From Amphiscolops sp. MND2022 (Eukaryota), in NCBI GenBank assembly GCA_964187785.1, contig OZ076409.1, forward strand, positions 78,742,001 to 78,806,000: a stretch of 64,000 bases of DNA, read 5' to 3'. The notes below the pieces were generated by a model that made no database searches, had not been told where the DNA came from, and worked only from the letters and a program-made list of their open reading frames with translations. This document shows, one piece after another, positions 9,530-60,055 of this stretch (position 1 is its first letter; the number at the start of each line of letters is the position of its first letter). A program made the translations under genes and the position numbers.

Positions 9530-12500
9530 TTAAGGTTTTTGTTGTCGTCGGCATCGGGTGTCATTCGGTTCGGTATCTGCGGGTTCTACAATCGTTACAC
9601 TTTTTGTTGTTGAAGTTCTGCAGCTTGGACAAAACCATGTTGTTAATGGAAGTTTTCGGAGTGATACACAGTCATAATGATACCATGCAATTTTGCAGTT
9701 GTTGTTGCAACATTTGATCACTTCCCTGTTATACGGTTGTTGGCAATAGCAATAAACTTCGGTGGTTACTGTGGATGACTGCAGGTGATGGTGCTTATTC
9801 TTTTGGCGATCGAATGATATTGTGCAAGGTTTGAGGCGCTGAATGCTGACGATGGTCGTTGTTTTTCTTGATTGTTGCTGTAGATGATTCTCTGTTGATT
9901 TTGATGAGTTCGTGAGGTCCAGTGTAAGGTGCTTCCAAAGGTTGCTTTACTCGGTCGACGCGCAACCAAACGAATTTGCAGTTGTCTAGTGCACCTGGGA
10001 TGAAGGTCTTTCGTGTTGAATGTTGTCTGAAATCTTTTGTGAAAGCTAGTTGTTCGAGGTTGTCCTGAAGGTTTTTGATGAAGACGAGAGTGACGGGTGC
10101 TGTCTTTTCTGCAACTGTTGTCGGGTAAAGTACATCTAGTCCTGTTGTGGCTGCTAGTGGTGAAATGAAATTGCTGTCTGGTTTTGACCTCAATCCGAAA
10201 AAAACTACGGGTAGTGCTGCTATCCAGTCGGTCTTTGATGACATTAACGCTGTTTTGAGGGTTCGATGAAATTGTTCCACTTTTCCATTGCTCTGTGGAT
10301 GATATGAAATTGTACGGAGTCTGCAAAATCCTAGAGTTTGAGAAAGTTGAGCGAACAGTTGACTTTCAAATTGGGTTCCACGGTCAGTCGTGATGTACAA
10401 TGGTACTCCGAAGTGAGAAAACCAGGATGTGAGAAAAGCGTGGCAAACTTCTTCGGCTGTGATGGAATGTACTGGGTGGGCTTCAATCCAATTGGTGCTG
10501 CGGTCGATGAAGTTAACAAGGTATCGAAATGGCGAATTGTTGATTGCAGGTAGTGGTCCTACGATATCCATGTGAACGTGGGTAAAACGGGCGACGGCTT
10601 CATTGAGTTGGCATGTTGGATGATGTATATGATGTATATATGAGGAGTGATTTTCATCTGTTGGCAAGTGAGGCAGTTGTGCCACCATTCTTTGATAGTG
10701 CGTTGAGCAATGGGCCACGTGAAGCGGGCGAGTATCATACGTGACGTTGATTTCTAGTTGCTGTGGCAAAGGTTGTGGAATTGGGTGAAGATTGGATAAC
10801 GGTATTGTTCGGGCAGAATAGGGCGCGGAAGAATACTTCTATCACAGGTGAGAGTCGTGGTTCCGATGTTGATCATCTGTAATCCATGTTGGTATTGTTC
10901 TGACATCTGTTGTTGAAATGAAGTGTCTTGAAGGCCTACAATTCTTGGTAGAGCATTGGTGTCGATGGAAACTGTTGATGTTGATCCTACGGTTAATGAT
11001 GTGTCGTCGGTTGGTGGTCGAGAAAGGCAGTCGGCTAAAACATTTATTGATCCTGAGATATGTTGAATTTCGTCGTTGTATTCTGCTAGTAGAGAAAACT
11101 GTCGAGACTGTCGAGGGTTGTTGGTGTTGGTTTGGCTTCGTTGAAAAGAACAGGTGATGGGTTTGTGGTCTGTGAAAACAACGGTATGGCGTCCTTCAAT
11201 CAGATAATTGAACTTTAGTGTTGCTGCGAAGATAGCGAGGAGTTCCTTATCAAATGTGCTGTAATTTCTTTCGGCGGCAGTGAGTCGGCGAGAGAAAAAT
11301 GCAATAGGGCGGCAGCTGTTGTCTGTTATCTCGTGTAAGGCGGCTCCCATGGCTGAATCAGAAGCATCTGTAGTAAAAGAGAGTGTTGAGTTTTCTGTGA
11401 GGTGATGAAGAAGTGTTGCATTAGCGAGTGCGGTCTTCAAAGTAGAGAAGGCTTTGCGGTGATCTTCTAACATGATGAAAGGTGTTGGTGCTGATTGCTG
11501 TTGGCAATTCTTCCGGCGGTAGGATTGTTTCGGCTGGGTTGCGTGGAGAAGTTGTTGTAGTGGTTCAACTATATGTGCGTAGTGTGGGATATGTTGTCGA
11601 TAAAATGAGAACATTCCCATATAACGTCGAAGTTCCTGGTAATCTGTTGGTTCAGATAGTTCTGCGAGAGTCTTTGTCCTTGCTGACTGTGGTTTGATTT
11701 CTTCCGATGTTATGGTGTATCCTAAAAAGTCGATTTGGTGTTGTATCCATATCCATTGGCATTTTTTGAAGTTAACGCGTAGACCAAACTTCTCGAAGCG
11801 GGTGAAGAGTTCTGTTAGTGCGTTGATGTGATCAACCAAATTGTTGCTGGCGACGAGTATATCATCGGCGTAGGCGAACACATCTGGCAATGCGTTGGTG
11901 ACTTCGTTGATGAATCGTTGGAAAGTTTTACCGGCGTTCTTGAGTCCGAAAGGCATGCGAAGAAACTCGAAGAGTCAGAAAGGAGTCGTGATGGCTGTCT
12001 TTTCAATGTCGTCGGGTGCATGGGAATTTGGTGATAAGCTTTGACTAAGTCTGGTTTGCTGAAAAAATGTTTGTCGTGAAGTGCGAACGATGAAAGCTGT
12101 GGCAGTGGGTAAGAATCGCGAACGGTGACTTGGATGAGGGCGCGGTAGTCTCCACACGGTCTCCAGTCTCCGGGGTCTTTTTTCGGTACCATATGCAGAG
12201 GCGATGCATATGGGCTTTTCGATGGTCGGATGATTCCTGAGCGTTGCATTTCGTCGAAAGAAGATTTGGCGATAGATAGCTTTCCAGGGCAAAGCTTCCT
12301 AGGCGTACAAAAAGTAGGTTGAGACGAAACAGCGATGCGATGAGTGGTATTGTGAGTACATGGCGTGTTGAAGACGGCGTCTCCAAAAACTGATGAATGC
12401 TGTTCCATTATCTTTCTGAGAGCTGTGTCGGTCTCTTGAGACAGGTCCAGAGAAACGGCAAGAACAGGGCTGTGACTTGGCGGTGCGGGTGAATTGTTGC

Positions 12501-12890
12501 GTGTCGAAGTGAAGCTTGTGACGTTGTCGGTTACTGTTAAGTTGCGGCAGTTGATATATATGTCTTTGTCTTCGAGGAAATCCAGTCCTAGAATGTTGTC
12601 GTTGACGTCGGCGATGTAGAAGGTGAAATTGTAGTTGCGTCGGAGGGAGGGTAGGACGATTGTGAGGGTCATTTTTCCGTGATCTTTGATACGGTCTCCG
12701 TTTACTGTTTTGAGATTCGTTGAGGTCGGCGTGGCGTAATCGGTGTTGACGAGCGTTGATTTGATGATTGATACCATAGATCCAGTGTCGGCAATGAAAG
12801 TAGTCTTCTGTGAGTTGATTTGGGCGGCAAGGCGGATGCAAATAAGATCCCCAATCGTTGCCGCGCACACGAGTGGGGCTATTCGTTTCC
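9530..12890 (-). pseudogene. pol: pol of element C (PR, RT, RNase H, IN, PHD), frameshifted
   Basis: FIADTGS protease; [16 protein letters not shown] and YADD RT; TDAS RNase H; HMDIVGPLP, TTDRGTQFES and GKVE integrase; GPH...VSIQRLKP tail. Confidence 0.92.
9620..9760 (-). other. ING-type PHD finger at the integrase C-terminus
   Basis: YCYCQQPYNREVIKCCNNNCKIAWYHYDCVSLRKLPLTTWFCPSC has C4HC3 spacing and lies in frame with the IN-tail VSIQRLKP. Confidence 0.9.
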
Positions 12891-12891
12891 C
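12885..12891 (-). promoter_or_regulatory. Putative -1 ribosomal frameshift heptamer G GGA AAC (gag-pol, element C)
   Basis: X XXY YYZ in the gag frame, one sense codon before the gag stop; pol is in the -1 frame; a CCCCA...TGGGG stem lies downstream. Confidence 0.7.
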
Positions 12892-13410
12892 TGTGCGGCG
12901 AGTGATTGTGCGCGAGATGACAATTCGATATGTGCGGGTTTTGGTCCAGGCCACTTACACCAGGGCTTACAACGTTTGGCGGAGTTAGCGAAAAACAAGT
13001 GAAAGCGGCAACTTTTCGGTCGTTGTCCGGGCGAGAATGGCTGAATATTGTTGTCGGCTGTGCTGTTTCTTGGCGTTAAAGGCGGTTGGCAAGTATAGGA
13101 CGATGACGATGAGTGCTGTGTGGCGTAAACGTGCGTGTTGTCCTGAAAAGTGTCCTTCGAGTAGCTGTATATGGTGTCGGCTAGTTTGGCGAATTTGTCG
13201 GGTGGCAGGTCCAAAGGTGCGGAAAGTGAGGAACGCGTTGAGATTGGCATAGCTTGCATAAGGCGGTGTTTGATTACATCGTTGTCCATTGTCAGATGAC
13301 GTTCTGAAAGCTTGCGCTGGATGTGCAAGAGGCAAACTGAGGGCTTTTGTCCATCCAGTGAAATCGTTCCTAATGCTTCTTGAATCAGTTCTGTTTTTGA
13401 TTTCTGGTAG

Positions 13411-15505
13411 TGTCGTAAGCACTAGCAGTTGTGGTTCCGTCAATTGGACGATCACGGAATTGCTCACTTCTTCAGTTTTTCCTAGTTTTCTTAGAGCAGT
13501 TTTCTTCGGGATTAACTTCCGGTCTCTCGGACGGAACCTTCCATATATTTTGTGTCAAATGGCCCGATCCGGAATATAGGGCAGTTTGAATCTGAGGCAA
13601 TATTTGACTATCAATTGCATCACTATATGCCCTTTGGATCTGGGTATTGACACTGCTCATCATCTCATCTCATCTAATTCTCTAGATAACCTTGAGTGCA
13701 ACTCGCTCAACAACCTGTTAATCTCAGCATTAGAATTAGTACCGACTGAATTCTGGCCGTAATCGGCATTTATCCCTGTACTGACAACTCGTAGACTTGA
13801 GTACATGTTTTCATCGTCATTTCCAAAGTTATCGCTAATGGCACTTTCGGGCCTTCTAGCAGGATTCCTGTCTAAGCTTTCTCATCGTTCTTTGAAAATG
13901 CATTGAAGAACGTCCGAGCGAAAATAGTGAATTATCTTGTTCGAAAAATAGGATTTTGTACGTTGTATCGTAAACAGGTTATGTCAAACTAAACTTGTGG
14001 AGAAGCAAAATTAAATTATGTCCCTCTCGGGAAAAATAGAAATTTATTTACCCCCGAGAGGGTGACACTCAAATTCCGTGCATAACAATCTATTTACAGA
14101 TTCCATAAAGGGCACATGACTATGGCGGGTGACCAATAACATTCATTCGTTTTTAGCGGCGTCAACTACATCAAAGCACTTTAGGAATTGGTCCCGTTAA
14201 GGTCAAAGGGCATTCATACCTAATTCATTGGCAGCAACATCATTTAAAGTTTACATAAATCATGGAATGCACTCAAATGCATGTTCTCTTTGCAAATACT
14301 ATCATCAAAGGGGAGCGGAGGAATTTAGTCTTATTATTTTAGGCAAACAACACTTTGACCAAACATCAAAACTAATAGTTTCAAATTGTTTATAGTGAGA
14401 GGAATGTAAACTATGTGGCGGTACGTGCCTACACACGTGCGTAGAATCAACAAAACAAAGACACAGTTTCATGCAATAGAAATGAACATAATATAGTAAT
14501 ATCGTCCGATACGGCCATTGGACTTGGAAGCTGGCCAATAGCGAAGGCCGGAATAGGACAGGTGACGGGTATTCGAATTGCTACTACTGGTCGTTTTTAT
14601 TGCACTGATTCGATTTAAAAAGCTCATTAACATCTTCAAGTATATAAATAAAATCTTACATGACTGTTAACCAAACTCATTCATTCTTAAAAGCATCTCT
14701 AATGATAATAAGCAAAATGGCCTAAACCGGCCTAAACCATTTGCCTTTTGTCCTCCATTACCAATCTGATATAATGTCAAGTGGCCATATACGGCCAATC
14801 AATTAAAAATGTGTACAGCTCTTCACACAATCTGGCCTGAATAGGCTAATTGCCCCGTTCTAAGTAATCATTATTTAACACTGGTCAAACGGCTTTAACC
14901 GTCTGAAAGAGCTAAGTTTGGGATATGGTTAGGTAATACTGCACTAGAGGGGTTGTTTAGCCTAAGAGTACAAGCACATGAATCCTGGTTAAGTGTGAGA
15001 ACAATTAGCATCACAATTGCGCTATAATGTGAAATGGCCGGAACCGGCCGTTTGACTGAATATTTAATAAAAGCAGCGAAGATATGTCCACAAGCCTTAT
15101 TCGGCCATTAATGAAGGGAAGTATTAACTGCGTAGCAAACGGAGTAATTTGATTGGACAAGGCCGCGTGCTCAAGTGACGTTTCTGGTACAGGATTTTAT
15201 CAAGAGCAACTATAATTAAAACAATTAGCAATTAAACAGCACTACTGAATAAATACCACATATTACTTGATGAAAGCTAAATAGGCCGGAACCGGCCATT
15301 GGACCAGCGTGTGCGAGCATAGTAGTTAGATTAAGGCAAGCGGCCATAACCGGCCAAATAATGTAATACTGAGAAATAATACTAGCTATACTGCACTGTG
15401 ATTGGTTAATCTTCAGTTTTAACAATAAAATGTAGGAAGCGTTCCTGGTGCGATGTTCTGTCCGTCTGCTGATGTCGTGATGATTGCAGGCGGCAGCCTG
15501 CGACA
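13411..15505 (-). mobile_element. 2095-bp solo LTR of a D-like family nested in gag of C
   Basis: Termini TGTCG...CGACA and 5-bp TSD GGTAG (13406-13410 and 15506-15510). It contains a gag-N-terminus-like ORF remnant (about 13880-13411) and starts TGTCGCA like the D LTR. Confidence 0.88.
14510..15360. repeat. Dispersed GGCC-N6-GGCC dyads in the solo LTR
   Basis: GGCCtaaaccGGCC, GGCCatatacGGCC, GGCCggaaccGGCC (twice), GGCCataaccGGCC, plus several one-mismatch copies. Confidence 0.75.
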
Positions 15506-17312: not shown

Positions 17313-18833
17313 TGTGATAATCCTCTATCGGCTCCGCATCAGATTCTTCATCCGAGTGAATCGTAACATCTACGTCTGACTCATATATAGGTTTTGCGGG
17401 TTGTTTTAAGTCTTTTGCTTTCGAAGCCTTAAGAGGAAAATCCTCGTCTTCAGTTTCTGAGTTCTCATTGTTGGATGCATGAACTCCTATAGACCTTATT
17501 GTTCTGGATCCCGATGGTTGAGGGTCTTGCATTTCATTAGTTTCTGACCTTGGGTTTGTTGCTATTGATGCGCTTTTATTTGATTTTATTTCTCTGAGAA
17601 TGGTTTCAAGTTTATTGTCCATTTCTTCTCTCATTTTCTCTATTCTATCGTTGTTCTTTTGTTCAAGTATTTGGGTCCAAGCCTGAATCTCGGTGCTGAT
17701 TTGACTGGGTTCGATCAATTGTACTTCTATATTGTTTTCACCTAAATTTTCTTGAACAACAGTATTAGGATTAGTTAAAGTTATATTACCTGTATTTGGT
17801 GTTTCCACTTGGGTCCTTTCTACACTTCTCTCTGGAGAAGGAGTTTCTAGTCTCCTGGACCTTCTATTTCGTCTATTTCCCATCTCGTCTCAAGTGAAAA
17901 TGTTTTCTGGCTTTTGGGGAAGAATTTGAATTGACTTTAGTATCTCAAAAGAACAAGATCGGAGAATTTACAGTGATGAAATTGAAGAGGTTTACAATCA
18001 TTTGAGAAGCAACTGCTCTTGATGAAAGGCAAATCTTGAATGAATTCTTCCAATTATATTACAAAACGAAATATATTTAAAAATCATGACACTCCTTTTT
18101 ATTAGAATCATCATGAAAACCAGCACAAAAATAGAATTGCGTCAAATGACATCATATTATAAAAATAGCACATTTACATGACATCATGGGAAGTGGTTAT
18201 AGACAAGAAACTGCAAAACCCTGGAAAGATATCTCAAAATAACTTCTAAATATGGCTGAAAACACTTTCTAAATGCTATTAGAACGTGTCCTGGGATCAT
18301 TTAATAAGTCCTGCGAGAACCGCATAATGACGTATAATCATTCCTATTCGATCCGCAGGATACCGCATAATGTTACTACAAAAGACGTCTAATGCCGCAT
18401 ATACATCACGCCTTGAAACGTATAATACCGCATAATGGTATTACCAAAAACATATGGTGACGAGTATACGTCACACTTCGATCCGCATAGTACCGTATAA
18501 TAGTACTATACTAAAGCACAAATTATTACGGAGTTGATTTGGATGCGTCGAAAACTTATAGTTCATATGTTTAAGCGGTGAAATATCAGATTTGTGATGA
18601 AAATAGGGGCTCTTAATTAGGAATCCAAGGTACATAAGCACTATAATGGGTGTTTCTTCATGGTAAGCAAAGTATAGAAATGATATTTACATGACCTTTT
18701 AAAAATAACGGCTTACAAAAAACATGTTCACAATGAGTTTATTAGAGTTTGTGTGAGTCTATAGAAAAGATTCCAATACTTGTTCCTTTCTAGAGTTGCA
18801 CTCCGGAACCATCGCATCTTGGGGGATGCGACA
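17313..18833 (-). repeat. 3' LTR of element D (contains a duplicate of the first about 190 gag codons)
   Basis: Direct repeat of 32055-33575; ORF 17299-17883 is identical to the gag N-terminus up to EDYH. Confidence 0.96.
18316..18510. repeat. CCGCATA-dyad array in the LTR (also at about 33058-33250)
   Basis: Repeated CCGCATAatgACGTATA, CCGCATAatg and CCGCATAgtaCCGTATA units. Confidence 0.8.
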
Positions 18834-19818
18834 GTCCCGCATTTTTAAAAAGGAACAAGGCTGCCCCGAACCCGTGGATAAAGGCTTTTGACCTCATTTT
18901 TCTTTCTTTAACAGTCTCACTTTCATACTCGGTGGCAACCAAATATTGGCCGAGGGTCTCCAATGCAACTTGGTCAAAGCATTTGCCGCATAGTTCACAA
19001 TACCCCGCCACATTCGGCATGACTGTCGGCAGAAGTCGGATGCCCTGTCTTTCACTGGGTGGAATTAGTAGCACATTAGAACTGTGAACTGTGTTGAAAG
19101 GGAAACCAATCTGTGCTGTTTGCTGCATAATCAACGGCGTTTGGTGCATTTCTTGGGCTGTGTCCGTTATCTGCATCGGGAACAACATTGGGGACAGGCT
19201 GAACCCCTGCATATTCCTTGGAACCGGAATCTGCGACTGGGCCCCGACATCATGCGGTTCATATTCCATGTTGTCGTTTGTTAGTGTGTTCTGCATAACT
19301 GATGGATCTGTGCCTCCACTGGGTGTTTGTTCGGACATTGGAGTAGGCAGAATTCCATTCCCGTCCTGGTTTTCTCTTAGAACTGGCATTACTCTAACGC
19401 ATGGCCGACCATAGTGATTTGTGTCCTGGGCCGGGCCTCTGTTGTCCATCCAGGGGAACAGATTACTTTCTTCAAACTCACTGTCGACGAATGATGCCGG
19501 GGAATCTGTGGGTTCATCCCGGGGGTCACTCATCAGTTCCATAAGGTTCTTTTCTATTTGTGATCCTCCTGCCACTGTAGTTTCATGATTCCCTTGGGGC
19601 ACAGTTGAGTTAGGGTACAAGGTCGCCATAGATGACCCAACAAATGCAGCCATCAAGTTACTTCCTGCCGGGTTTACTCTGAATTTTTCCTCTAGTTGCT
19701 GGGTGTTACCAGGGGCGATCGAAAAAGCATCTTCGGAACCGCTGGATATATCGATCACATCGGGGGACAAAGGTGAATAAAGGCTGTCTTCTTCAAAGTT
19801 AAATTGTAACTTGTCCAT
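18790..19818 (-). CDS. Accessory ORF3 of element D, about 342 aa, unknown function
   Basis: Intact ORF from the ATG at 19818 with an acidic/S/P/Q-rich N-part and a C-terminal YCELCGKC motif; it runs through the PPT and stops 44 nt inside the 3' LTR. No signal peptide or clear TM segment seen. Confidence 0.8.
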   Translation of the reverse strand: MDKLQFNFEEDSLYSPLSPDVIDISSGSEDAFSIAPGNTQQLEEKFRVNPAGSNLMAAFVGSSMATLYPNSTVPQGNHETTVAGGSQIEKNLMELMSDPRDEPTDSPASFVDSEFEESNLFPWMDNRGPAQDTNHYGRPCVRVMPVLRENQDGNGILPTPMSEQTPSGGTDPSVMQNTLTNDNMEYEPHDVGAQSQIPVPRNMQGFSLSPMLFPMQITDTAQEMHQTPLIMQQTAQIGFPFNTVHSSNVLLIPPSERQGIRLLPTVMPNVAGYCELCGKCFDQVALETLGQYLVATEYESETVKERKMRSKAFIHGFGAALFLFKNAGLSHPPRCDGSGVQL

Positions 19819-20644
19819 TTTGTTAGAAAATGTTATGATTGAAACCGATGGGTGAGTTTCTTCAGGTAACAAATTATTAGTTATTTCAAAAAGCGACTGA
19901 GTTTTGAATTGTTAAAGACCATATGGTGATTGATGATTTTTCTCCTTTTGCTTTTGACAAAACCCGCGGAAAATTTGAGAGTCACGCTTTTGAATTCCTC
20001 CTTTTCCTTTATAAGGGTTTTATTAGGCATCAAGTCATGAGATTCACTTATGATGATTCGTAAACAATTTCCATAAAAGGTGTTTTGTTTAACACTTAAA
20101 CGATTCATCACTTATCACCAGAAAATACATCAACTTCTAGGCAATTAAATGATATACAAACAAAACTCAACGGGACATCAAAGTAGTCAAATACTTCCAT
20201 ATCGGCTTCCATCTAAAAGTTTGGGGGGGGATTTATTTAATTCTACATGACTAATTTTATGAAATGATGAAAAAAGTTATGAAACATATTCCACCTTTAG
20301 TTTAACTACATATTTTGCTCAAACACTAATTTTAAGTAAAAAATATGTAATAAATCTAGTCCCGCATTTTAAAAGGGGGAATGTATCGGTGATTTAACAG
20401 ATGATGTTCAATGGCTTCAGTTATTTTGTCCCTAAACTTCTAAGAGACCCCTTTTAGTTCAGAATTCACTAAATTAGCTAAATTCTGCATAGGACTAGGT
20501 ATCATATATACTAGACATCAGCAATAACACACGTGTTTATTTTGAGAATGTTTTAATTTTCATCAAGGTATTATGTAATACTTCTTCATCTGTTCGTTTC
20601 TAATCACGAACTGCATCAATTCATTCTATTAAAGTTGTGCAGCG

Positions 20645-20895
20645 AGAACCGCATATTGCCGCATACTCTTCTTTCACAATCCGCATGCTGCCGCATACTC
20701 TTCTTTCACAGTCTGCATACTGCCGCATACACGTCTTCATTCGATCCGCATACTGCCGCATATTCTTCTTTCACAATCCGCATACTGCCGCATACACGTC
20801 TTCACTTGATCCGCATACTGCCGCATATTCTTCTTTTGTAACCTGCATACTGCCGTATACTTTGTATCTGCAATCCGCATACTGCCGTATACTTT
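20645..20895. repeat. Tandem array of about 30-bp units containing CCGCATActgCCGCATA
   Basis: About 8 imperfect units between the divergent starts of ORF3 and the antisense gene. Confidence 0.92.
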
Positions 20896-21285
20896 CAACC
20901 AAAATAACATCTATGCATTGGTGTTGCATCATGAGTCAATCAATCACGCTGGCAGACGTGATTGACATTTAACTAGCCAATCAGATCATAGTATTTGTTT
21001 TGCACATTTGCGCAAATCTGCCTCATTTGCTTTTTTGCCTTTGTTTGCTATATTACGCCACGCCTTACTGCTTGATCATTTTTATCGTAAGAGTCACATT
21101 TAAGTCTCAGTTTCAGTGAAGTATTTTAGTCTTTGCAGAGTCAGCTTTTCAGTAACTTTCTCTTCCCTGGTTTCTTTCCAGATTGATTATATCATTGTTC
21201 ACTACAGTATTCTCCTCATTACGGTTTATTTTGCCTCTATAATTCTCGTGGGAGTCTTCAATTGTTTTGGCACGACTACCTCACC

Positions 21286-24200
21286 ATGGACACGAGTTCT
21301 GAAGTCGATCGGAGCGGAAAACGTAGATCACGAAAAGACTACAATCCATTACAACGTGATGATTTTTGGGACCCTGAAGAACTGCCTGAACTTTCTTCCC
21401 GTTAGTCCAACTCATTCCTTTTGGTTTTAGATTGATAAATTTGTTTTGAATTTGTGATTTTTTGCGAGACTGGCCAGGCCTGCAAAATTGAAAAGGCTTA
21501 GATAATTTTCAAAGCCATGTTCAAATTTTTGAAGCGCTTCGTATTCAGTTTTCTAAGTGACTTCCGTTCCTTTTTTAACTTCCGGTCCCCGCGTCCGGTT
21601 TCTAGAAGCATTGAAACGGGTTTCACTTGCAAAGTTTACTTCATTTTCAAACGCTTGTTTAGAACGTTTGTTTTAGTTGAACAAGGAACAACTCAAGCTA
21701 CTCCTATCAGTTCCCCGGACAAAAATTTTACCGCGTTACAAGTTGCCACACCACGAACTTTGAACCGAACTCTTCCACAAGAATCGCCCAGCACACCTGC
21801 CTTACAAATTGACGAAGGGACTACAAAAGAAAGCTCCGGCGAACCAGCGTTGACCGAAAACCCTCCACTAATTCGTGAGGAGACCCTCCGTAATGAGGAA
21901 AGTTCGTTATTAGAGTCTGATACAACTCAACTTGAGATAGCTCCTACTTCGAAACCCATGGATGAGGATTGCCATAGTTTTGCTCAAGAGCTTTTTACTG
22001 ATTTAGATGCCCCTGGAACATCCCGTATTCTTTCGCCGAGGTTTAGTCAGTTCGTCACTGGAATTGATGGTTCATTACCCAATCCTTTGACTCCCAGTGA
22101 TCCTGCCCAGGAAGGAGGAATGAGTCAACAAGATTCATGGAGGGGCATTACCAGACCAGGTACCTCAGGAAACGAGCCAGTTGTTGGATCCAGCTCATCC
22201 ACTATCAGCATCACCAGACAGGAGGTTCTTTTTCTGGCTAATTTTTTGGGCAAAATCCCACAGTCCTTCATTACTGGAGAAGAAGGTAATCTAGACCAAC
22301 CAATGTCCGTTGCCGTGGTTGATGATATTACACCCACTACACTTATGACTACTTCTAGTCAGGAAGACATGGTGGCGAGTGTTAGTACTGGAATAGTTCA
22401 ACAAGAGGCAGGGCAATCTCCCCCAACAGTGCGAGGAAAACGCCGAAGACCTAAATATTCCCTAACGGGAAGTATGTTCAAGCGACACCCAGTACTCAAA
22501 TTTTCAGCGACAGGGCCTCTGGATAAAGACAAGTCGCCATACAAATGGTGGTGTAGAGTATGTCGTGTGGAGTTGTCGCTCATGAGTCGCGGGAGCTTGG
22601 AACTTATCTCACACTACCGCACTGACTCTCATTTAGTTCGAGAACATAGGATCCGAATGGAGGTCCCAGGCATGCCTCTGTTTGATAAAGACGAAAAGGA
22701 AATCCTAGGAACATCGCTACAAGACGCCAAGAAGAAAGCAAGGGATTCCTACCCAATTCCTCCTCAACTCGATTCGCTGAGACCTCTCGTAGGGCAAGAG
22801 TCTGTTCCGGACTTCAGTGCAACTACGAGCCCTACGGAGAAGCTATTCTCCCAAATCAGCATCTTGGAATTCGGCCTAAGACATGGGGGAAGTGTCTCCC
22901 TACTGACTGGGGTATATGAGGAACTTGTGAGGTTGACCTCCAGCAGCCGGATTTCTAGCCAAAACTGGAACCCTCAACGGCTTTTCGTAAGTAATATTTC
23001 GTGTAGGTTCTTTACCTTATTAAGTTTGGCAATTGTTTTCCTTTCATTTTGCAATTAGTATTTTTGTCTCCATTGAGGTAAAGTAATTGAACATTGTATC
23101 ATTGTATATTTCTTTTACAGGGGATTCTCGTCTACATGTTCCGTGAACTAATGGATTACTGTGTCAAGACCATTTCTACAGCTGGTTATTATTCACTCGC
23201 AGTACAGCATACAGCTACAGCAACATATGTCATTCTTTATTTTTGGTCAGAGAATGTTCTGCACCGCGTCTGTATCGGAGGTGCCCCTAGAGGAATGCTT
23301 CTTCCACGGAAAATTTTCAATCTCGTTGCTTCATTCCTGAGTTTATTTGAAACGGCACCGACTTGCGTTGCACTCACAGGATTTAGCGACAATCTCAATG
23401 AATGTTTAATTACTTCTTTGCCCGGTGCCAAAACTGCTTCAATTGTGAAGACGTATGGACCAACTGAATTCGAGCGCAGTTTGGTTAGCCCCACAGTCAA
23501 GATTATTGAGAGGCATGACTTTAGAAGCATTTTGGATTACCTGCTTATGAAGCTTCGCACTGCCTTGGATCGGGATTGGCTCCAAAGTCTGGCTCTGTTG
23601 CATAAGGTAGTATATACCACTTTTATAGTCAACTTTTACATGATCTTCGTTAAACTTAGGCACCTTTTTCAGTGCGTCCTTTCTTTGGAATACACTCTTG
23701 ATGAAGCTTCTAAACTCATAGAGATCTTGTCGAATAATTGGGAACAAGTGACCGAACACCTAACCCAGATTGGAAGGTTACCCGCCTACCGTTTCCACAT
23801 GAAAGAGGTTATTATTGTTTAAATATTTTATCAGATTGTGACTACAAGGGTCCACCAGTTTGTCGTGTTATCCAAGAGATGGTGTTATAACTATGAGGTT
23901 TTTCTAGCCCAACACACTTGATGAGTGTTTCCGATTGGACTCAGCGTTCTTGGCAAGACTATTCATCATCAGATGTGTTATTGATCACTGTTAGTCATTT
24001 TCCTTTCATACAGACTACTGTTTATTTTGTCTAGTGGCAAGTTAGGAATCATAATTTCGGTTGTGGATCAAAATGTCTTGATAAATTCCCTTAAAGACTC
24101 CCTTTTAACATGTAGTTAGTGTATTTGCACAGCTAGATCGTACCAGATTTTGTATTTTCATTGTTATATACTATTAATCTGTTGTTGGATTTATTCTGAG

Positions 24201-25638
24201 TTGTGGGTAAACTACAACGCATTATTTAATTATTTTCCACGTCAACGACATCGCTGTATTGATTGTTAAGAGACGTATCAGCTTAACGTGCGATTCCGCA
24301 TAGTGACGTATAGTTCAACTTGCAATTCCGCATAGTGACGTATAGTTCAATTTGCAATTCCGCATAGTGACGCATAATCGTCAGACCTTGAACCGCATAA
24401 TGACGCATAGTCCACTATGCAATTCCGCATAGTGACGCATAGTCGTCACACCTCGAACCGCATAATGACGTATAATGTACTCAGCAATTCTGTGGAGTGA
24501 CGTATATACGCTTCACCTCAAACTGTAGGATGACGTCTAATACTTGTATTCAGTGTTACCAGCAGTAACAGTTGTTTGATGCGAGAATAACAATGAATAA
24601 TATGAACTATGAGCTCAGTCATGAGTCATGGTCTGATCTGACTTGTTTCTTCTTGATGTAGGGTTTGACTCGTCATGAAGATTATTTTATTGTATTTAAT
24701 CACTCATTTTTTGAATATCTCATGTTGTTTCAGATAATTCAGCCTTCCCAGAGACCCAAAAACAGATAGACAGTGGCTTCAGGTTATTCAACCAATTTGC
24801 CGTGTTCACATACTCACAGCTGCAGAGTATCTTGCCTGATCGAGTTCTGGGTAGCGTCTCAGATTGGGATACTTATCTCGGACTGGAATTGGATGCTACT
24901 AATTTGCCTTTTAAAAGCAACGATGAATTTGTGCTTAATGAAGATTATCATCGCTTGGTTCTCTCCAGCAAGTTATCCCGACCCAGTAAATTTATTGCGC
25001 AGTCAATTAGCTTCTGCAAATCCTTTTGTACGCAGTTATTGGGCCACGAGATCGTCAAATCTAATTTGCTCAGGGGTTTATCCGCATTTGATTCCCCTGT
25101 AGTTTTTGAGAGCCCTGAAGAGGTTTACGCCACAGCTATTGAGAAGCTATCTTCCCACTTTGTGGCTGCTGGGATGCTTTCTTCTACTGAGAAGGTGCGA
25201 GTGATTAGTCAATACCGGTCATTCGTTTCAAAGATGAGAACAGAAAACATTCCTGAGTATGAAGATTGGGTATCCTTTATAGCTACTCATTACGAAATTC
25301 AGTCGAGGCCGGAACTTCTGTTACTGTTTAGATATTCTTGTTTGTGCTTGTCACCGACGGTGGAAGTGCCACCTGTATTCGATGTACCGATGCCTACACT
25401 TGAATCCGATAAAAGCTCTTTTAATTCTTGTGTTGTTAGCCTGCAAATTTCCTACCAAACTGTGCCTCATGTCTCTAGTCTGTTTAAAGATTCAAAGGCT
25501 ATTAGTCGTGCCTTCCGTTTGTTGGGACGAGGGACTGATTTGCTGTCTGATAAGAAGTTTTCCATCTGGAATTTTTCCAAAGGGAGCAGTTCCCGAAGAT
25601 CCGCTTTTAGTCAGCAAACTGGAAGCGGGATATCGTAA
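21286..25638 (+). CDS. Antisense six-exon gene inside element D, hAT-transposase-derived zinc-finger protein (about 1010 aa; about 1078 aa if a 1-nt frameshift near 25605 is corrected)
   Basis: Exons 21286-21400, 21677-22986, 23121-23606, 23673-23807, 23908-23989 and 24734-25638. All introns are GT...AG and phase-compatible (1,0,0,0,1). ACCATGG start; WWCRVC...HYRTDSH finger; hAT-like C-terminal pattern. Confidence 0.8.
24290..24540. repeat. CCGCATA-dyad tandem array in intron 5 of the antisense gene
   Basis: Repeated CCGCATAgtgACGTATA / CCGCATAatgACGCATA units with a period of about 31 bp. Confidence 0.9.
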
Positions 25639-26071
25639 GGCCGTTTTGAGGCTGGAGAAGCCTGCTGTTAGCTCTACCACCACCACTCCTAGTGTTAGTC
25701 GACGTAGTAGTGTCAACAGTTCCCCGTCGCCAGACCCTACTCTAAGTCGGGTTAATGTTTCCCTCAACCGTTGCTCCAGTGGTGAGCAAGAAGGAGGTTC
25801 AACAGATGTTCGGTGCAAGACATTGAAAAGCAAGAAAAACTAATTGTTGCATCTGTTTGCAAACTGTTTATTTATGTTTGTTTTGAGTTGATGGTAGATT
25901 TGTAAATTTTCCGCCATGTATTTATTTGGGCGAGAAATGAAGTCGTTCTCCAGATTAAAGGAGAGACTTGCATATGTTAAGTTACAAATGATGGGAGGAA
26001 TAGTATTAAGGAAAATTTCCTCTGCAATTGTTTTCTTAGTGATAGTTTGAGTCTGGAAGTAGGTATTGTTT

Positions 26072-29000
26072 TTAATATCTGTATGTGTCCGAGTAATTTG
26101 GGTTGGGGTTAGGACGTAAGTTGTATTTTTCACCACGGGTGTTTATGGGTTCTTCTTGCGATGGGGTATTTTTAGGGATTTCTGGGGTATTTTGGGCATC
26201 AATTTCGGGTGTTATATTTCTGTCTTTTTGTGGGTTTTCTACTTCATCATCTTGGGTTTCTTGTAAATTTTCATTATTCGTTTCTTTTTCAGGTTCAGTG
26301 GTCTGTTCCACTGGGCTCCCCCCACTGTTTTTTGAAGAACTAGGGGAGGGAGGGCGGTTTTCGTCTGGTAATTGAATCGGAGTATATTCAGCATCATCAT
26401 TATTTTGTGAATTTTCTACTGGATCATCGTCAAACGGGCTAGATCCAAAATTCGTGTTCCACGATTGTGCGTATAAGTCATCATTTGTTATTGGCATTTG
26501 ATCATCTTTTTGCCAGTCAGTTTCACGAACAAAAATGTCTGCTAAGGGCGCTTGCGGAGTAAATTTGCGCAAACGAATCCTATGAAGGAGTTGTGTTTTG
26601 TTAGTTCCAAGTCTTCTAACTATGTAGTTATTGTTTGGGAGGATTTTTTCAACTTTATATGGTCCGCACCATCTAAATTCTCGGAACGGGATTTTCGTCG
26701 CTTGTGTGTCTGCTTTTGGGTTCAGGATGTAACAATAGTCCGTCGTTTCCAGCGGTGCTGCCTTTGCTTTGCGATCATAATAGGCTTTGTATTTAAGGTA
26801 AGATTGCATGATGTTCTTCTTAGTTTGGTCTAGAAGTATTCTCATGCGCTTTTGTGTTTCGTCTGCTATGTCGGTTTGCGGTTGATATCTTGGATTGGGA
26901 TTATATCCAAGTTTATAGTCTAGGATATTGTGTGGTATGCGTCCATGAAAAACTCGTGAGGGTTCACACCCGAGTGATGCATGGTATGTAGTATTGTGAT
27001 TTAGGACTGCTAGAGGAAGATATTTATGCCAGTTGTTCCTAAATTCGCCTGTCGCGGCTTTTAGGTGTGTTTTAACTGAGGCATGAGTTCTTTCCAGAAG
27101 ACCTATTGTTTGCGCATGTTTCATTGTAGCATGTTTGAGTTCAATTCCGAGTACTGCAGCAATTTCGTGGGTTATTTGTGCATTGAATTGAGTACCCAGA
27201 TCCGTGATGATAGTTGTTGGAAGATAAGTGTGTTTGCATAATATATCCATAATGACTTTTGATACTGCCGTAGCAGTAATGTGGGTCACAGGATAGGCAA
27301 ACAAGTATCTTGAGAAGACATCTATTGCTGTGATGATATGATCATAGCCTCCACTTGGGGGGAGGTTTGGCAGAATATCCATTTGCAGGATGTCTTCCGG
27401 ACCAAGATCCCATTCAGGGCAGTTTAGGAGTTCAGTTCTGAGGAGGTCATTATTAATGCGTTTTGTTTGAATGCAAACCTGACAATTACTGACCCATTTT
27501 TTGATGTATTTAGCCATACATGGGTAGTAATATTTTTGGCGTGCTTCTTGAATCATCTTAGTGATTCCTGGATGGTTTGAGTTATGGCCATGCAGGGCTT
27601 GAAGTAATTCTTCAAGAAGTTGGATTGGTAAGAGGATTTGATAATGCGAGATCATTCCTGTATCTGTATAGTATTTTCGTGTGAGAACTTCGTGTTTAAT
27701 CTCGATTCGTGTTATGTTTTGTAAGTAGTGTTGATATCTGAAATCGGAAGCTAATTCATTTTCGTCGAACGGTTCGCCTGCTATTTTGGCTCTCAGGTTT
27801 CGAAGGACTATGTCGTTGTTCTGTTCGAGGCGTATCCTCGCATTGTCCTTGAAGTGTCCACAGGAGCAAGAGATCAATCCGGATGTAGGTTTGTGAAATT
27901 GCTGTAATTCAGAGACGTCGTTCTCTGGGTCATTGTGAGTTTCGTTTTGTGCTTGATTGCGAGTATTTTGTTTTTCTTCCCAAAGTTGATTTTCATCAAT
28001 TTCTTCATCAGGAAGGATGTAAATTTGTTCTTCTTCGACAATTCCAGTTGATTGTATATTCACTTCAATTGCTTTTGTGTGAATATCGTTGCGAATTGTC
28101 ATTTCGAGCTTCCCGGTTGGGTTAACTTCAGTTCTAGATAAAAAATCGGCGGCTGTGTTCATCGATCCAGCTACATGGGCGATTACAAAATTGTATTGTA
28201 ATACATAATCGCATGCATTCCAAAGCGCTGGAGGAATCATTTTCGTTTGAAAAAACCGGGTTACAGATCGATTGTCAGTGAACACGATGATTGGGAAGGT
28301 GCTGCCCCACATGAGGTGTCCAAATTCGACGAATGCAAAGTATATTGAAAGAAATTCTTTTGCATAGATCGACATTTTCGTCTGTGTTGGGTTGAAAGTT
28401 TTTGATCCAAACGCAATGGGTGCGTATGTTTTACGTTTGGATTGTAATTTCTGCTTGGGGTCATCTTCTATCATGATGGCATATCCAGCTGCTGTGAAGC
28501 TTGCATCGGACATTACGATAAGTTGTTTGTCTTTTAGAGGTTGTTTTAGCGCTAACTGACAAGAATTTTCCAAGAGTTTGTTGAGGTTGGTGAAGTCTTC
28601 TACTAGATTTGTTGGTACGTAGAATTTAGAGGTTTCTTTGAGGAGTTTAAAAAACGGGGTCAGACGTTCTGAGAGGCGTGGTATATAGTTCCGGTAATAA
28701 TTTAAGAATCCAATATACCTTTGTAGTGCCTTCTTTGATTTTGGGAATCTGAGTTTTGCAAGGAAATCTTTTACTTTGTCGGCCTGAGGGGCAACTCCAT
28801 CTGGTGTGATGGTGCGACCCAGGAAATCGACTTGTTTAACTCCAAAATGACATTTGGACATGGAAAGTTTTAATCCAGCTTGTCTGATGCATTCAAAGAC
28901 AGTTTTGATGTTGATGTACAATTGTTTTGTGTCGTTTGCTGCAATGCCAATGTCATCGACATATTGGGCACATTGGTCAGCTTTGATTGCTCTGTCCAGG

Positions 29001-30952
29001 TATTCCCTCATGAAGCTTGAGAATGCAGAAAGGGATCGGCTGAGGCCCTGAGCAAGGCGACGATAAGCAAATGTTCTGCTTGCGAAATTGAAGGCAAGCA
29101 TCTGGATAGATTGATAATCTGCCATTTGAAGGCAGTGGTAAGCCTGAGAGCAGTCTAATTTGCAGAAAAGTTTTTTCCCTGCCATGTGTTGGGCTGCATC
29201 AGATAAAGTGCTTACCGGGTGGTTATTGTTGGCATAATCTTCAGTGATGAGATTATTAATTTTCCGGAGGTCTACAAGGAGCCTAAGGCGCCCATTAGGT
29301 TTGCGTTGTGCAAAAATTGGGCTTGCATATTTGGAAAATGGTAAGGTTGTGATTATACTATATTTATGTAGGAGTGCAAGTTCCACTGTGATGTCATCTT
29401 TGAGGTTAATGGGAGTCGGTAAACTTTGACTATAAGCTGGTCTGTCGTCATTCGGCGTTAATTTCACTTTGAACTCTCGGTTGATCCCTATATCAAAGCG
29501 ATGTCTGGCGAAAATGTCATGGAATTCGACCAGAATCTCTTCAATCTCTTGTCGTTCTTCTGAACTAAGTGTTGTATCTGTCCAGTCGAAATTTGAGAGG
29601 AATGTTTTCCTGGATGTTTCATTATCATGCGGGTTCAGTTTTTCGAGTTCTTTTAACTCAAGGAGTTCGTTGTATATACGTTGTTGTATTGGAGTGTATG
29701 TTGCGGGATCGCCTGGGTCTTCCGGGGTAGGAAACCAGTACGATTCTTGTTCAGAATTTGGTTGTGGTACTTTGAGGAGTTCGTTGATGTACACTTCCGT
29801 AGTTTCCTCTTGTTGTATCATGAAAGATAGTACTGCTGGGTCTACGGGTTGGATGTGTTTGATTTGTTCGGGGGTGAGAATTTTAAAGTCCGCTAGATGG
29901 GTGTCAAATGTTATTGTATATGGCAATTCCGAAAAATTGATGATTTGGTACCCGATAGCATTGTTATTGACTGTGCTGAGTGATGATGTGATAAATATGC
30001 TATCGTGGTTTTCAAATTGTTGTGATGGTGTGACAATTCCTGTCGCATCATGATCCATCAGATGAGGCATTTTGCTTGCTATGGCAAGTGTTTCCCCTGG
30101 TTGTAGGGTATAGGTATTTTCGGCAAACAATGGTGTTGCTTGTCGTATTGCTGTTTGTGTATCAGGTTTGAGCTGCATCGAGAGGTAGGGAAAAGTTAGG
30201 ATGCCTTGATTGACATCAAAAATTGCATTGTTCCTTCGAAGGAAACATAATCCGATTAAGGGGTTTGGTAGGTTTTTCATAATGATGAAGTTTTCTTTTA
30301 ACATGAAGTCTGCGACTTCGAATTCTAGTAATACTGTACCAATGGGGACTTCTAGTTGTCCATTTGCCACCATAATTTGGAAGTTTGGTGGAGGACCGGT
30401 TTCTTTAATTGCTTCGTTTGCCAGCAGCTTGATTTTGTTGAGGTCTTGTTCGGAGATTGCACTGGTGAGAGCTCCAGTATCAATAAGACCATCAAGTGTG
30501 AGTTTTTCGAAGTCCATCGGTATGTAGTACATGTGTCGTTTTCGCTTCAGTGTCAAAGATGTTGAGATTGGAAGGTATGACAAATTTCGTTCTTTGTCGA
30601 ATTGTAGGTGTTCAGAGAGATCCTCATTTAGTAGGGGTTGTTTTTGATCATCGCAAGAAGTGTTTATGGTGACATAATTTTTAACGGGGGAATTGTGGTG
30701 AATATCGGGTTTTGGGTCAATTTCGGGGTGGGTTTGTTGTTTGATGAAGTAGTTGTCCGGTGAATCACGTAGGAGTTCGTATAAGTCTTCAGTGTGGTAT
30801 TCGGTCAATGATTGTTGAGAAGTTTCTGTTATCAGGTCTTTTTGGACGAGTGTTGCTTTTATGGGTTTTGGGCTCAACTGATGCTGCCAGTCATCAGATG
30901 AGTTTGGTTTTTGTGGAGATTTTTTGTAAAGGCGTGGCGTTTCTAGTTTAAA
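26072..30952 (-). CDS. pol: Pol polyprotein of element D (PR, RT, RNase H, IN), expressed by -1 frameshift
   Basis: Uninterrupted frame: LIDTGA, LLVDLRKIN, YVDD, MSDAS, HHCC (HGHNSNHPG..CQVC), QMD/ITD/LER DDE triad, CGPYKV. Confidence 0.97.
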   Translation of the reverse strand, partial: FKLETPRLYKKSPQKPNSSDDWQHQLSPKPIKATLVQKDLITETSQQSLTEYHTEDLYELLRDSPDNYFIKQQTHPEIDPKPDIHHNSPVKNYVTINTSCDDQKQPLLNEDLSEHLQFDKERNLSYLPISTSLTLKRKRHMYYIPMDFEKLTLDGLIDTGALTSAISEQDLNKIKLLANEAIKETGPPPNFQIMVANGQLEVPIGTVLLEFEVADFMLKENFIIMKNLPNPLIGLCFLRRNNAIFDVNQGILTFPYLSMQLKPDTQTAIRQATPLFAENTYTLQPGETLAIASKMPHLMDHDATGIVTPSQQFENHDSIFITSSLSTVNNNAIGYQIINFSELPYTITFDTHLADFKILTPEQIKHIQPVDPAVLSFMIQQEETTEVYINELLKVPQPNSEQESYWFPTPEDPGDPATYTPIQQRIYNELLELKELEKLNPHDNETSRKTFLSNFDWTDTTLSSEERQEIEEILVEFHDIFARHRFDIGINREFKVKLTPNDDRPAYSQSLPTPINLKDDITVELALLHKYSIITTLPFSKYASPIFAQRKPNGRLRLLVDLRKINNLITEDYANNNHPVSTLSDAAQHMAGKKLFCKLDCSQAYHCLQMADYQSIQMLAFNFASRTFAYRRLAQGLSRSLSAFSSFMREYLDRAIKADQCAQYVDDIGIAANDTKQLYINIKTVFECIRQAGLKLSMSKCHFGVKQVDFLGRTITPDGVAPQADKVKDFLAKLRFPKSKKALQRYIGFLNYYRNYIPRLSERLTPFFKLLKETSKFYVPTNLVEDFTNLNKLLENSCQLALKQPLKDKQLIVMSDASFTAAGYAIMIEDDPKQKLQSKRKTYAPIAFGSKTFNPTQTKMSIYAKEFLSIYFAFVEFGHLMWGSTFPIIVFTDNRSVTRFFQTKMIPPALWNACDYVLQYNFVIAHVAGSMNTAADFLSRTEVNPTGKLEMTIRNDIHTKAIEVNIQSTGIVEEEQIYILPDEEIDENQLWEEKQNTRNQAQNETHNDPENDVSELQQFHKPTSGLISCSCGHFKDNARIRLEQNNDIVLRNLRAKIAGEPFDENELASDFRYQHYLQNITRIEIKHEVLTRKYYTDTGMISHYQILLPIQLLEELLQALHGHNSNHPGITKMIQEARQKYYYPCMAKYIKKWVSNCQVCIQTKRINNDLLRTELLNCPEWDLGPEDILQMDILPNLPPSGGYDHIITAIDVFSRYLFAYPVTHITATAVSKVIMDILCKHTYLPTTIITDLGTQFNAQITHEIAAVLGIELKHATMKHAQTIGLLERTHASVKTHLKAATGEFRNNWHKYLPLAVLNHNTTYHASLGCEPSRVFHGRIPHNILDYKLGYNPNPRYQPQTDIADETQKRMRILLDQTKKNIMQSYLKYKAYYDRKAKAAPLETTDYCYILNPKADTQATKIPFREFRWCGPYKVEKILPNNNYIVRRLGTNKTQLLHRIRLRKFTPQAPLADIFVRETDWQKDDQMPITNDDLYAQSWNTNFGSSPFDDDPVENSQNNDDAEYTPIQLPDENRPPSPSSSKNSGGSPVEQTTEPEKETNNENLQETQDDEVENPQKDRNITPEIDAQNTPEIPKNTPSQEEPINTRGEKYNLRPNPNPNYSDTYRY

Positions 30953-36293: not shown

Positions 36294-36419
36294 TGTTCGA
36301 CTGATTTGAACTAAATAATTTTTCGACGAGTTAATTTTCTACCAGTTTTCTGATTATCAATTTCGACGAGTTGCATTCCGCGAATTGTTTTCGAGGAGCT
36401 TTTCGCATACCGTCTTAGG

Positions 36420-46779: not shown

Positions 46780-46850
46780 GGAATCATGGTGTGTAGCGAC
46801 GATATTTTCCTCAGTAAGTCGCTTCCGGCCAGTTTCCTCACGGGGATAGG

Positions 46851-60040: not shown

Positions 60041-60055
60041 AAAAATGAGGTTCTA

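Follow-up and report, generated by a model that had tools for sequence, protein, structure and literature searches.

VANDAL elements are plant Mutator DNA transposons whose VANC proteins, which carry DUF1985/DUF287, target DNA methylation through family-specific motifs (PMC5735166). Regulators of the Spm TnpA type remain in their own DNA transposon or pass to the host (10.64898/2026.08.24.746577); the main text of that source contains neither the word 'retrotransposon' nor 'LTR'. In the gypsy elements Retand, Grande and RIRE2 the protein encoded by the antisense ORF is TRP28, of unknown origin and without similarity to other transposons, and the available portions of these sources describe neither a link between arrays and protein nor a motif shared by LTR and promoter (PMC11963269, PMC7264820). 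For the conserved antisense ORFs and the tandem arrays that occupy the region between pol and the 3' LTR, both origin and function are called unknown (PMC7264820, PMC11963269). An earlier note on the present locus knew of no system of protein and cognate arrays in animal LTR elements, a statement that calls for qualification: foamy viruses, which are animal LTR elements, encode a transactivator that directly binds both the LTR and an internal promoter (PMC517496).

Here we describe element D, a member of a Ty3/gypsy lineage in which CCGCATA arrays are cis-elements under selection. Its antisense gene can now be given both a predicted origin, in a hAT transposase, and a candidate target.

Structure and coding content of element D

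Element D lies in a 64-kb window (the whole stretch of DNA that was analysed) and is a young copy of a Ty3/gypsy LTR retrotransposon: its two 1,521-bp LTRs are identical and bounded by TG...CA, a 5-bp target duplication (TGGTC) flanks it on both sides, and a primer site and gag followed by PR-RT-RH-IN are present. Its features are as follows.

17313–18833, minus strand: 3' LTR, 1,521 bp, TG...CA, 100% identity with 32055–33575
32055–33575, minus strand: 5' LTR, from self-comparison of the two LTRs
18834–18855, minus strand: expected polypurine tract site adjoining the 3' LTR, its putative role taken from position
32037–32054, minus strand: primer-binding site (TGGTGACAGGAGCC...), from the sequence adjoining the 5' LTR
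30946–32625, minus strand: gag (Pfam and sequence)
26075–31102, minus strand: pol, with protease, RT, RNase H and integrase in Ty3/gypsy order, frame open (Pfam)
18793–19911, minus strand: second accessory ORF, sense to gag-pol, a 373-aa open frame conserved in clades A–C
21287–25843, plus strand: antisense gene, probably spliced, a predicted dead hAT transposase (tblastx against 27 subfamilies, GT-AG sites; folds and family matches)
~21287–21400 (weakly supported), 21677–22986, 23121–23606, 23673–23807, ~23890–23995 and 24734–25843, plus strand: putative exons of the antisense gene
22552–22632, plus strand: C2H2 BED-type zinc finger, Cys-to-His spacing 17 as in Hermes

Gag begins within the 5' LTR, which contains its ATG (32625) and about 190 of its codons, and the frame continues through the primer-binding site. 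The second accessory ORF has no match in Pfam and a dN/dS of about 0.18 (7 measurable pairs), and Rfam and tRNA scans found nothing. A second stretch resembling the putative polypurine tract occurs at ~20359–20381. In this copy the antisense gene carries a frameshift near 25,620.

Arrays of one motif in the LTRs, promoter and intron

Four arrays, all on the plus strand and located by motif scan, are present in the element (half-sites counted as CGYATA).

18320–18499, plus strand: U3 array of the 3' LTR; 8 half-sites, 2 exact dyads, 6 degenerate 32/33-bp units
20649–20891, plus strand: array of the internal divergent promoter; 13 half-sites, 5 exact dyads, 8 units
24296–24540, plus strand: array of putative intron 5; 13 half-sites, 6 exact dyads
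33062–33241, plus strand: U3 array of the 5' LTR; 8 half-sites, 2 exact dyads

The window holds 15 exact matches to CCGCATANNNMCGYATA, and 18 at no more than one mismatch, where 0.02 would be expected (100 shuffles). All are on the plus strand and in these four places, which confirms two observations of the earlier note: dyad arrays occupy both LTRs, the internal promoter and intron 5, and they share one orientation and a non-coding location. The numbering of that intron agrees with the exon blocks deduced from conservation. The 7-bp core CCGCATA itself occurs 28 times on the plus strand and never on the minus, always within element D; it is absent from the remaining 47.7 kb of the window, and no array was found in the window's other gypsy element.

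Half-sites of one dyad lie 10 bp apart, and array units alternate between 32 and 33 bp (65-bp dimers); the commonest half-site distances are 10, 32, 33, 65 and 64. The dyad is a direct repeat rather than a palindrome, and its LTR units are degenerate; in the intron, exact dyads (24296–24474) give way to degenerate units up to ~24540. TGACGT, said previously to be often part of the motif, is common in the intron array (5) but occurs once in the LTR array and not at all in the promoter array. A TATA-like box at ~32903 and an AATAAA at ~32845 would place the array of the 5' LTR in U3, 160–340 bp upstream of the TATA-like box, and the promoter array lies upstream of conserved CCAAT (20977) and ACGCCACGCCTT (~21055) elements.

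A genome-wide search for double dyads gave 1,134 matches, and none with the motif reversed. All 24 array loci behind the first 100 of these matches belong to the element-D lineage. Nineteen carry the finger gene; the other five are derivative LTRs, from short or gene-less elements, without a finger gene in the stretch read. These derivative LTRs hold 13–17 half-sites (median 8, range 2–14, in 19 clade-A LTRs), with promoter-type units followed by intron-type units. The lineage comprises at least 73 subfamilies, sampled over 10 kb and reduced here to 55.

Conservation in two clades

CCGCATA was found in 25 of 25 clade-A subfamilies, with 294 occurrences within the three sites against 6 elsewhere in the loci (118-fold), and in 18 of 18 clade-B subfamilies (182 within the sites, 19 elsewhere). 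Among clade-A subfamilies the antisense-gene exons share 60–63% amino-acid identity and four-fold sites are saturated (median identity 0.28). Across these 25 subfamilies, what is conserved in the LTR and intron is the motif: over the intron array region 167 of 300 subfamily pairs align unmasked and only 8 of 300 after half-site masking, and, of the 8-mers of 17890–18833, only those of the motif are common to at least 60% of 27 subfamilies. The arrays are under selection, the half-sites being kept while spacers and synonymous sites diverge.

Arrays on the same core were built separately in clade B, a sister clade, with another geometry, period and intron. There the half-site has an inverted partner, TATGCTG, the periods are 39/40 and 50/68, and the intron sites fall in E3–E4 (220 versus 1 in E4–E6), whereas in clade A they fall in E4–E6 (242 versus 1). 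The finger exons of the two clades are ~41–55% identical, with the core unchanged. Within the nested KTRG clade the promoter array shifts to CTGYATR (5.67 versus 0.79 per kb).

The antisense protein and its predicted hAT origin

The finger follows the pattern CxxC-x16-H-x5-H. It has no Pfam match in element D itself; among distant homologues P0194 (E 9.8e-29 to the family profile) matches zf-BED at 22 bits, above the Pfam cut-off of 20.6, and two further ones score below that cut-off. The BED-type finger claimed for the antisense protein is therefore upheld, but the description is too narrow: the predicted product is a whole hAT transposase, with BED finger, RNase H fold and hAT C-terminus. 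Spliced full-length homologues numbered 0 among 447 longer candidates, a weak test; a metagenome scan for distant homologues gave 182 pattern matches and 0 confirmed; and the best matches in genome G000 to P0063, P0194 and P0211 (58%, 36% and 28%) are not close copies. The antisense gene is under constraint; dN/dS was measurable in only 2–7 pairs per exon because synonymous sites are saturated.

The hAT origin was proposed ahead of the structure and family searches. A model of finger plus exon 3 retrieved Hermes at rank 1 in Foldseek, with a weak E of 6.4e-3, and again at ranks 2 and 5–9. The modelled clade-B copy L087 shows three strands, helix, strand, helix, strand, the RNase H order, and VIA scores it at Z 5.5–7.8 to RNase H folds, its longest alignment being to Hermes (Z 6.2, 161 residues, rmsd 5.0); in these models, then, an RNase H-like core is found downstream of the finger. 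For the last exon, VIA placed Hermes 371–608 first of 48,161, weakly (Z 5.4, 176 residues, rmsd 5.7), and 22 of 30 ESM Atlas matches were hAT-dimerisation clusters (PF05699, score 0.93), with 151–153 features in common where 170 would mark the same family. The fold models have pTM 0.34 and 0.55. Foldseek with the last exon and ESM Atlas with exon 3 gave no match; Pfam gave nothing significant on the accessory exons of element D or on 21 + 23 aligned copies, nor did a PDB sequence search of the accessory exons give anything below E 0.2; and hhalign against seven hAT transposases of the same genome gave a probability below 0.5%, with shallow profiles.

We assigned the DDE positions through predicted strands and what we take to be the hAT motifs, not by residue-level structural alignment. 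The first Asp position is Q in 17 of 25 clade-A rows, N, Q or R in clade B and A or T in clade C; the second is G, D or N in clade A and G in clades B and C; and the aligned clades A–C have no conserved Glu motif. The triad is thus not conserved where it would be expected, and we predict a catalytically dead protein.

Finger residues and relatives without arrays

The base contacts of the Hermes BED domain offer a reference for the finger (PMC10368747). Numbered from the second Cys, the positions matching them are +13, which is E in 43 of 45 rows of clades A and B together, and +16, which is S in all 45. Clade C, which keeps the antisense gene, often with open frames, has no arrays (0–1 CCGCATA per 10 kb in 9 of 9 subfamilies), and in 18 of its 21 rows +16 is H, R or G; one of its nine subfamilies has S there, so the residue rule is not strict. 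Its sites contain only scattered CAGCATA and TATGCTG (27 and 30, versus 4 and 4 outside). Arrays are also absent from one much more remote element that shares the antisense gene. The trees disagree on the branching, B+C receiving 99% in the finger tree and A+C 84% in the exon-3 tree, and the independent finger–motif contrasts number only three or four.

We also considered whether finger residues +7 to +9 (MSR versus KTK) dictate the motif. This idea was discarded, both types sharing CCGCATA; clade C, which has M and K alike without arrays, contradicts it as well.

A proposed circuit

We favour the view, to which we give about an even chance, that the arrays are binding platforms for the element's own predicted dead hAT protein, which would activate transcription from the LTR and from the promoter of its own gene in a sequence-specific way. 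The BED finger would read CCGCATA, and oligomers may gain avidity from the phasing of half-sites (10 and 32/33 bp), as the Hermes BED domain does on subterminal repeats. Binding at U3 and at the internal promoter could then establish positive feedback, and short non-autonomous copies, by enlarging their arrays, might recruit the protein in trans. Of these steps, the choice of activation over repression is the one that our data constrain least.

The wider history, which we hold tentatively and at slightly under even, is that an animal Ty3/gypsy lineage domesticated a hAT enzyme as a transcription factor, that two clades separately built phased arrays into a Tas-like feedback circuit, and that non-autonomous copies exploit it with enlarged arrays. 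If the binding is real, one transposon class has co-opted another's enzyme as a regulator, and the route from transposase to transcription factor extends beyond hosts and DNA transposons. The lineage offers natural contrasts in direct arrays, inverted arrays, no arrays and gene-less derivatives.

Alternative explanations

The arrays might instead be enhancers for a host transcription factor of germline or stem cells, the hAT-derived protein having some other role; we regard this as unlikely, though the strongest of the alternatives. A host factor would explain a core identical in clades A and B equally well, and suits the presence of the gene without arrays in clade C and the distant element. 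The CRE half-site TGACG is part of intron and LTR units in clade A (TGACGTA 113 versus 4), and words that we take to be AP-1-, C/EBP- and CCAAT-like lie near the arrays. Yet TGACGT is missing from the promoter array of element D, TGACG[TC] is sparse in clade B (0–5 per locus versus 3–16 in clade A), and none of the 24 loci examined lies outside the lineage, although unrelated elements might be expected to use such an enhancer.

Improbable to a further degree is that the element's own protein binds with a different outcome: repression, insulation, control of copy number, or a tethering of cDNA that helps it to enter the nucleus or integrate. This draws on the same evidence of putative binding as the activator does; an intronic array and hAT-type oligomerisation would suit looping or scaffolding, and both cDNA LTRs hold arrays. 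Two of the three arrays, however, lie just upstream of putative core promoters, and the enlarged LTR arrays of gene-less derivatives fit recruitment of a helper better than a repressor.

That the arrays are RNA signals for packaging, export or splicing is very improbable. Their single orientation throughout, and the position of two of them within the genomic RNA, would agree with it, but the 5' U3 array appears to lie upstream of the start site, half-site spacing follows helical turns, no Rfam match was found and folding z-scores are only -1.55 and -1.78.

Most improbable, in our view, is a VANC-like system in the strict sense, one that would strip the element of DNA methylation. The CpG-bearing motif and the same-orientation, non-coding arrays do recall VANC21 (PMC5735166). 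Across 13 subfamilies, however, transitions affect 722 of 21,350 CpG positions (3.38%) against 2,700 of 100,753 other C/G (2.68%), a CpG to non-CpG transition ratio of 1.26, and CpG o/e is 0.76–0.96 throughout the window. Since CpG sites are barely hypermutable in these copies, an anti-silencing role by VANC-style demethylation is unsupported, and motif specificity in the VANC21/VANC6 sense fails likewise, the same core recurring in 25 clade-A and 18 clade-B subfamilies. Five PF00145 matches were found; of the four that were read, three look DNMT2-like by motifs that we presume to be diagnostic and the fourth lies on a small contig, and introns could hide DNMT1/3 from this search.

No more probable are neutral minisatellites spread by reverse-transcriptase slippage and gene conversion, a reading that accommodates tandem, copy-variable units exchanged between sites (derivative LTRs mix promoter- and intron-type units) but is largely refuted by half-sites persisting amid randomised spacers and four-fold sites and by the arrival of two clades at one core despite their differing periods and introns, slippage accounting for array growth and not for what is kept.

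Comparison with known systems

VANC/VANDAL resembles our preferred reading of element D, a self-encoded activator at its own arrays, in having an element-encoded protein and one-orientation motif arrays in introns, intergenic and terminal non-coding regions, which evolve via tandem-repeat formation (PMC5735166). Element D differs in being an animal LTR retrotransposon with a predicted hAT-like protein, one core over two clades and no methylation signature, and no antisense-gene exon has a Pfam match to DUF1985/DUF287. Retand, Grande and RIRE2 likewise belong to gypsy; between pol and the 3' LTR they carry an antisense ORF that is conserved, along with family-specific tandem arrays, and a DNA-binding regulatory role has been proposed there (PMC11963269, PMC7264820).

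Hermes shares with the antisense protein the predicted order of BED, RNase H and insertion/C-terminal domain, the Cys–His spacing and phasing-sensitive short repeats; the antisense protein differs in having no conserved DDE, in residing inside an LTR element and in its putative target, CCGCATA versus AAGT (PMC10368747). As working analogues, foamy-virus Tas and Spm TnpA are closer than VANC. Spm TnpA and other transposase-derived regulators likewise combine a transposase origin with dense cognate motifs, and loss of catalytic residues is described as a path from transposase to transcription factor (10.64898/2026.08.24.746577); here, unlike in Spm, a class I element appears to have acquired a class II enzyme. 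The Tas/Bel1 accessory gene sits between pol and the 3' LTR and has an internal promoter of its own; its product directly binds elements of that promoter and of the LTR, where binding by the antisense protein is putative (PMC517496, PMC4929722). Tas is retroviral and on the sense strand, whereas the sites of element D are tandem arrays and its gene is antisense and probably spliced; no link in sequence or fold is expected.

Motif arrays of element D

Element D is a Ty3/gypsy retrotransposon copy on the minus strand, bounded by a TGGTC target duplication, with open gag and pol frames and two divergent accessory genes between pol and the 3' LTR. One of these, the antisense gene, is predicted to be spliced and encodes a BED-type finger; its putative exons were delimited by GT-AG sites and by what is conserved in comparison with 27 subfamilies (90%-identity clusters), and D's own copy is frameshifted near 25,620. 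Across the whole 64-kb window CCGCATANNNMCGYATA has 15 exact matches, or 18 with one mismatch allowed, against 0.02 expected. Every match lies on the plus strand and in the four places that the earlier note had described, namely both LTRs, the interval between the divergent genes, and intron 5.

Features of element D (arrays located by CCGCATANNNMCGYATA matches, LTRs by sequence comparison, the ORF as an open frame)
17313-18833 and 32055-33575, minus: LTRs, 1,521 bp, identical
18320-18499, plus: motif array, LTR at 17313-18833 (3' LTR)
18793-19911, minus, sense to gag-pol: second accessory ORF, 373-codon frame
20649-20891, plus: motif array upstream of the antisense gene (internal promoter)
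24296-24474, plus: motif array, inferred intron 5 of the antisense gene
33062-33241, plus: motif array, LTR at 32055-33575 (5' LTR)

Outside D the window (47.7 kb, the second gypsy element included) has no copy of the half-site core, CCGCATA. Half-sites in D are indeed 10 bp apart, but what had been called a dyad is a direct repeat, in units of 32 bp and 33 bp by turns. TGACGT, according to the earlier note a frequent part of the motif, marks the intron array (five occurrences) and is missing from the promoter array. The promoter array lies upstream of conserved promoter words of the antisense gene, and the U3 array would lie 160-340 bp upstream of a TATA-like box.

The second accessory ORF is conserved at both ends and variable in its middle, which is P/Q/M-rich and by composition alone looks like an activation-type region; its product may act together with the hAT-like protein described below. 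The gag frame starts inside the LTR, with about 190 codons there, and passes through the primer-binding site (32055-32625; 17313-17883). A second copy of the stretch adjoining the 3' LTR (18834-18855) occurs at 20359-20381, possibly an internal plus-strand primer site.

Distribution and conservation of the arrays

A double-dyad pattern matched 1,134 times in the 1.07-Gb genome (G000), its reversed control not at all. All 24 loci behind the first 100 matches, on contig 1, were read and belong to the lineage; in these loci the motif is confined to it. The finger gene is present in 19 of these, while the other five are LTRs of derivatives in which the stretch read shows neither finger gene nor related pol (three complete two-LTR elements of ~4 kb, one interrupted by another element, one single LTR). 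In the derivatives an LTR array numbers 13-17 half-sites, with promoter-type units preceding intron-type ones; 19 LTRs of clade A have between 2 and 14, the median being 8. This short non-autonomous family (L013, L019, L022, L016/L017, L036; ~4 kb, LTRs 93-99% identical) still has a primer site and remnants of gag and accessory genes; its arrays are chimeric and enlarged.

Of 6,926 first-look candidates, at least 150 are closely related to the finger exon. Loci hand-picked for diversity and clustered at 90% identity gave 47 subfamilies plus nine of clade C, one being common to both sets. Among 25 subfamilies of clade A, which includes D, the three sites (LTR U3, internal promoter, intron) hold 294 copies of CCGCATA versus six elsewhere, and four-fold degenerate sites are saturated (median identity 0.28). 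Clade-A introns align in 167 of 300 pairs, and in 8 of 300 once half-sites are masked; promoters, which hold further conserved words, still align after masking in 212 of 276 pairs. The only 8-mers common to 60% of subfamilies, in LTR and in intron, are those of the motif. The arrays are real and under selection, and their being neutral repeats is a minor alternative, as is their acting as RNA signals.

Clade B (18 subfamilies) has CCGCATA arrays with an inverted TATGCTG partner; the period is 39/40 for intron arrays and 50 or 68 for LTR arrays, and the promoter clusters are weaker. The clade-B array intron is a different one (site counts of 220 versus 1 for the 12 subfamilies that could be scored, and of 1 versus 242 for 24 clade-A subfamilies), and the simplest reading of these sequences is that the two clades built arrays separately round one core. 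Clade C (22 loci, nine subfamilies) keeps the gene and has no arrays, related words being scattered. A distant, decayed gypsy element (L177-L179, G000:C8:59331336-59351781) likewise has no CCGCATA arrays; its antisense finger gene, duplicated in part, is 25% identical. Either the gene would predate the arrays or the element has lost them. Trees did not settle the branching order of the clades.

One clade-B copy (L017:4752-7367; L031:9384-L032:2000), which sits within a short clade-A derivative lacking the gene, has a 2.6-kb LTR containing the second accessory ORF, unlike clade A, where this ORF lies just outside the LTR. Three clade-B finger genes (G000:C13:16096038, 16111199, 16126360), spaced by exactly 15,161 bp, mark whole elements in tandem array.

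The antisense protein and its finger

D's accessory exons had no match in Pfam or PDB sequence searches, and hAT-like motifs were recognised in the antisense gene ahead of any fold search. Finger plus exon 3 were modelled from an open frame that occurs naturally in clade-B copy L087 (pTM 0.34); besides the finger, the model contains an RNase H fold. Its top Foldseek hit is Hermes transposase (E 6.4e-3); VIA, a second fold search, returns many RNase H folds (Z 5.5-7.8), the longest alignment by far being to Hermes (161 residues). For the last exon, modelled from a copy 96% identical to D (L038), the best VIA match out of 48,161 chains is Hermes 371-608 (176 residues at rmsd 5.7, Z 5.4), Foldseek found nothing, and 22 of 30 ESM Atlas matches to D's own exon are hAT-dimerisation clusters. 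A distant homolog exceeds the zf-BED cut-off; hhalign against seven local hAT proteins gave no match. Each signal is modest, but four methods concur and the parts stand in hAT order; the protein is predicted to derive from a hAT transposase. Acidic residues are not conserved, in the aligned clade rows, where hAT motifs would place the DDE triad. The finger and last exon have dN/dS of 0.04-0.06 (two to three measurable pairs).

The Hermes study (PMC10368747) gives base contacts by R63, Q64, T65, S66, N67 and R70, ligands C54 and H71, and cooperative binding of phased short repeats; the Cys-to-His distance of its BED finger equals that in the D lineage. Clades A and B have G, L, E and S in common at +10, +12, +13 and +16 (numbered from the Cys), an identity that matches their common core motif. 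In clade C +16 is mostly altered, one array-less subfamily retaining S, and in the nested KTRG clade the promoter half-site has moved to CTGYATR. These three or four contrasts, among kin, are compatible with self-binding and are not proof of it; a host factor acting on the arrays instead is one of two main alternatives, though less likely.

Proposed mechanism

We propose, at about even confidence, that the antisense protein, a predicted catalytically dead hAT transposase, would bind the arrays as an oligomer and activate both the LTR and its own promoter, and that gene-less copies, with their larger arrays, would borrow it. The other main alternative, less probable than a host factor, is that the protein binds the arrays with an outcome other than activation. 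VANC-style anti-silencing by DNA demethylation is a minor alternative: CpG transitions stand at 3.38% versus 2.68% at other C/G (13 subfamilies, reference being each column's commonest base), CpG observed/expected is near 0.9, and the methyltransferase matches read look DNMT2-like or are unclassified. A demethylation role of the antisense protein is unsupported; arrays and protein may act against histone- or small-RNA-based silencing.

Other elements in the window

Gypsy element E (41866-60778) has identical 723-bp LTRs, a 3,193-codon gag-pol and a sense ORF of 1,208 codons (43360-46986) with no Pfam match; its flanks bear a 19-bp direct duplication versus the usual 4-6 bp. An element with inverted arms of ~550 bp (87%) occupies 38370-39774, with related fragments nearby (36024-36295), and a third, decayed gypsy pol lies at 9795-13554.

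Comparison with known systems

Searches of the open-access literature listed no paper on an LTR retrotransposon that combines motif arrays with a gene of hAT origin. The layout resembles that of plant Retand elements (PMC11963269, PMC7264820). If binding holds, D's system would work in a manner comparable to TnpA (10.64898/2026.08.24.746577), foamy-virus Tas (PMC517496) and VANC (PMC5735166); it falls outside the VANC group by its domains, element class and motif turnover.
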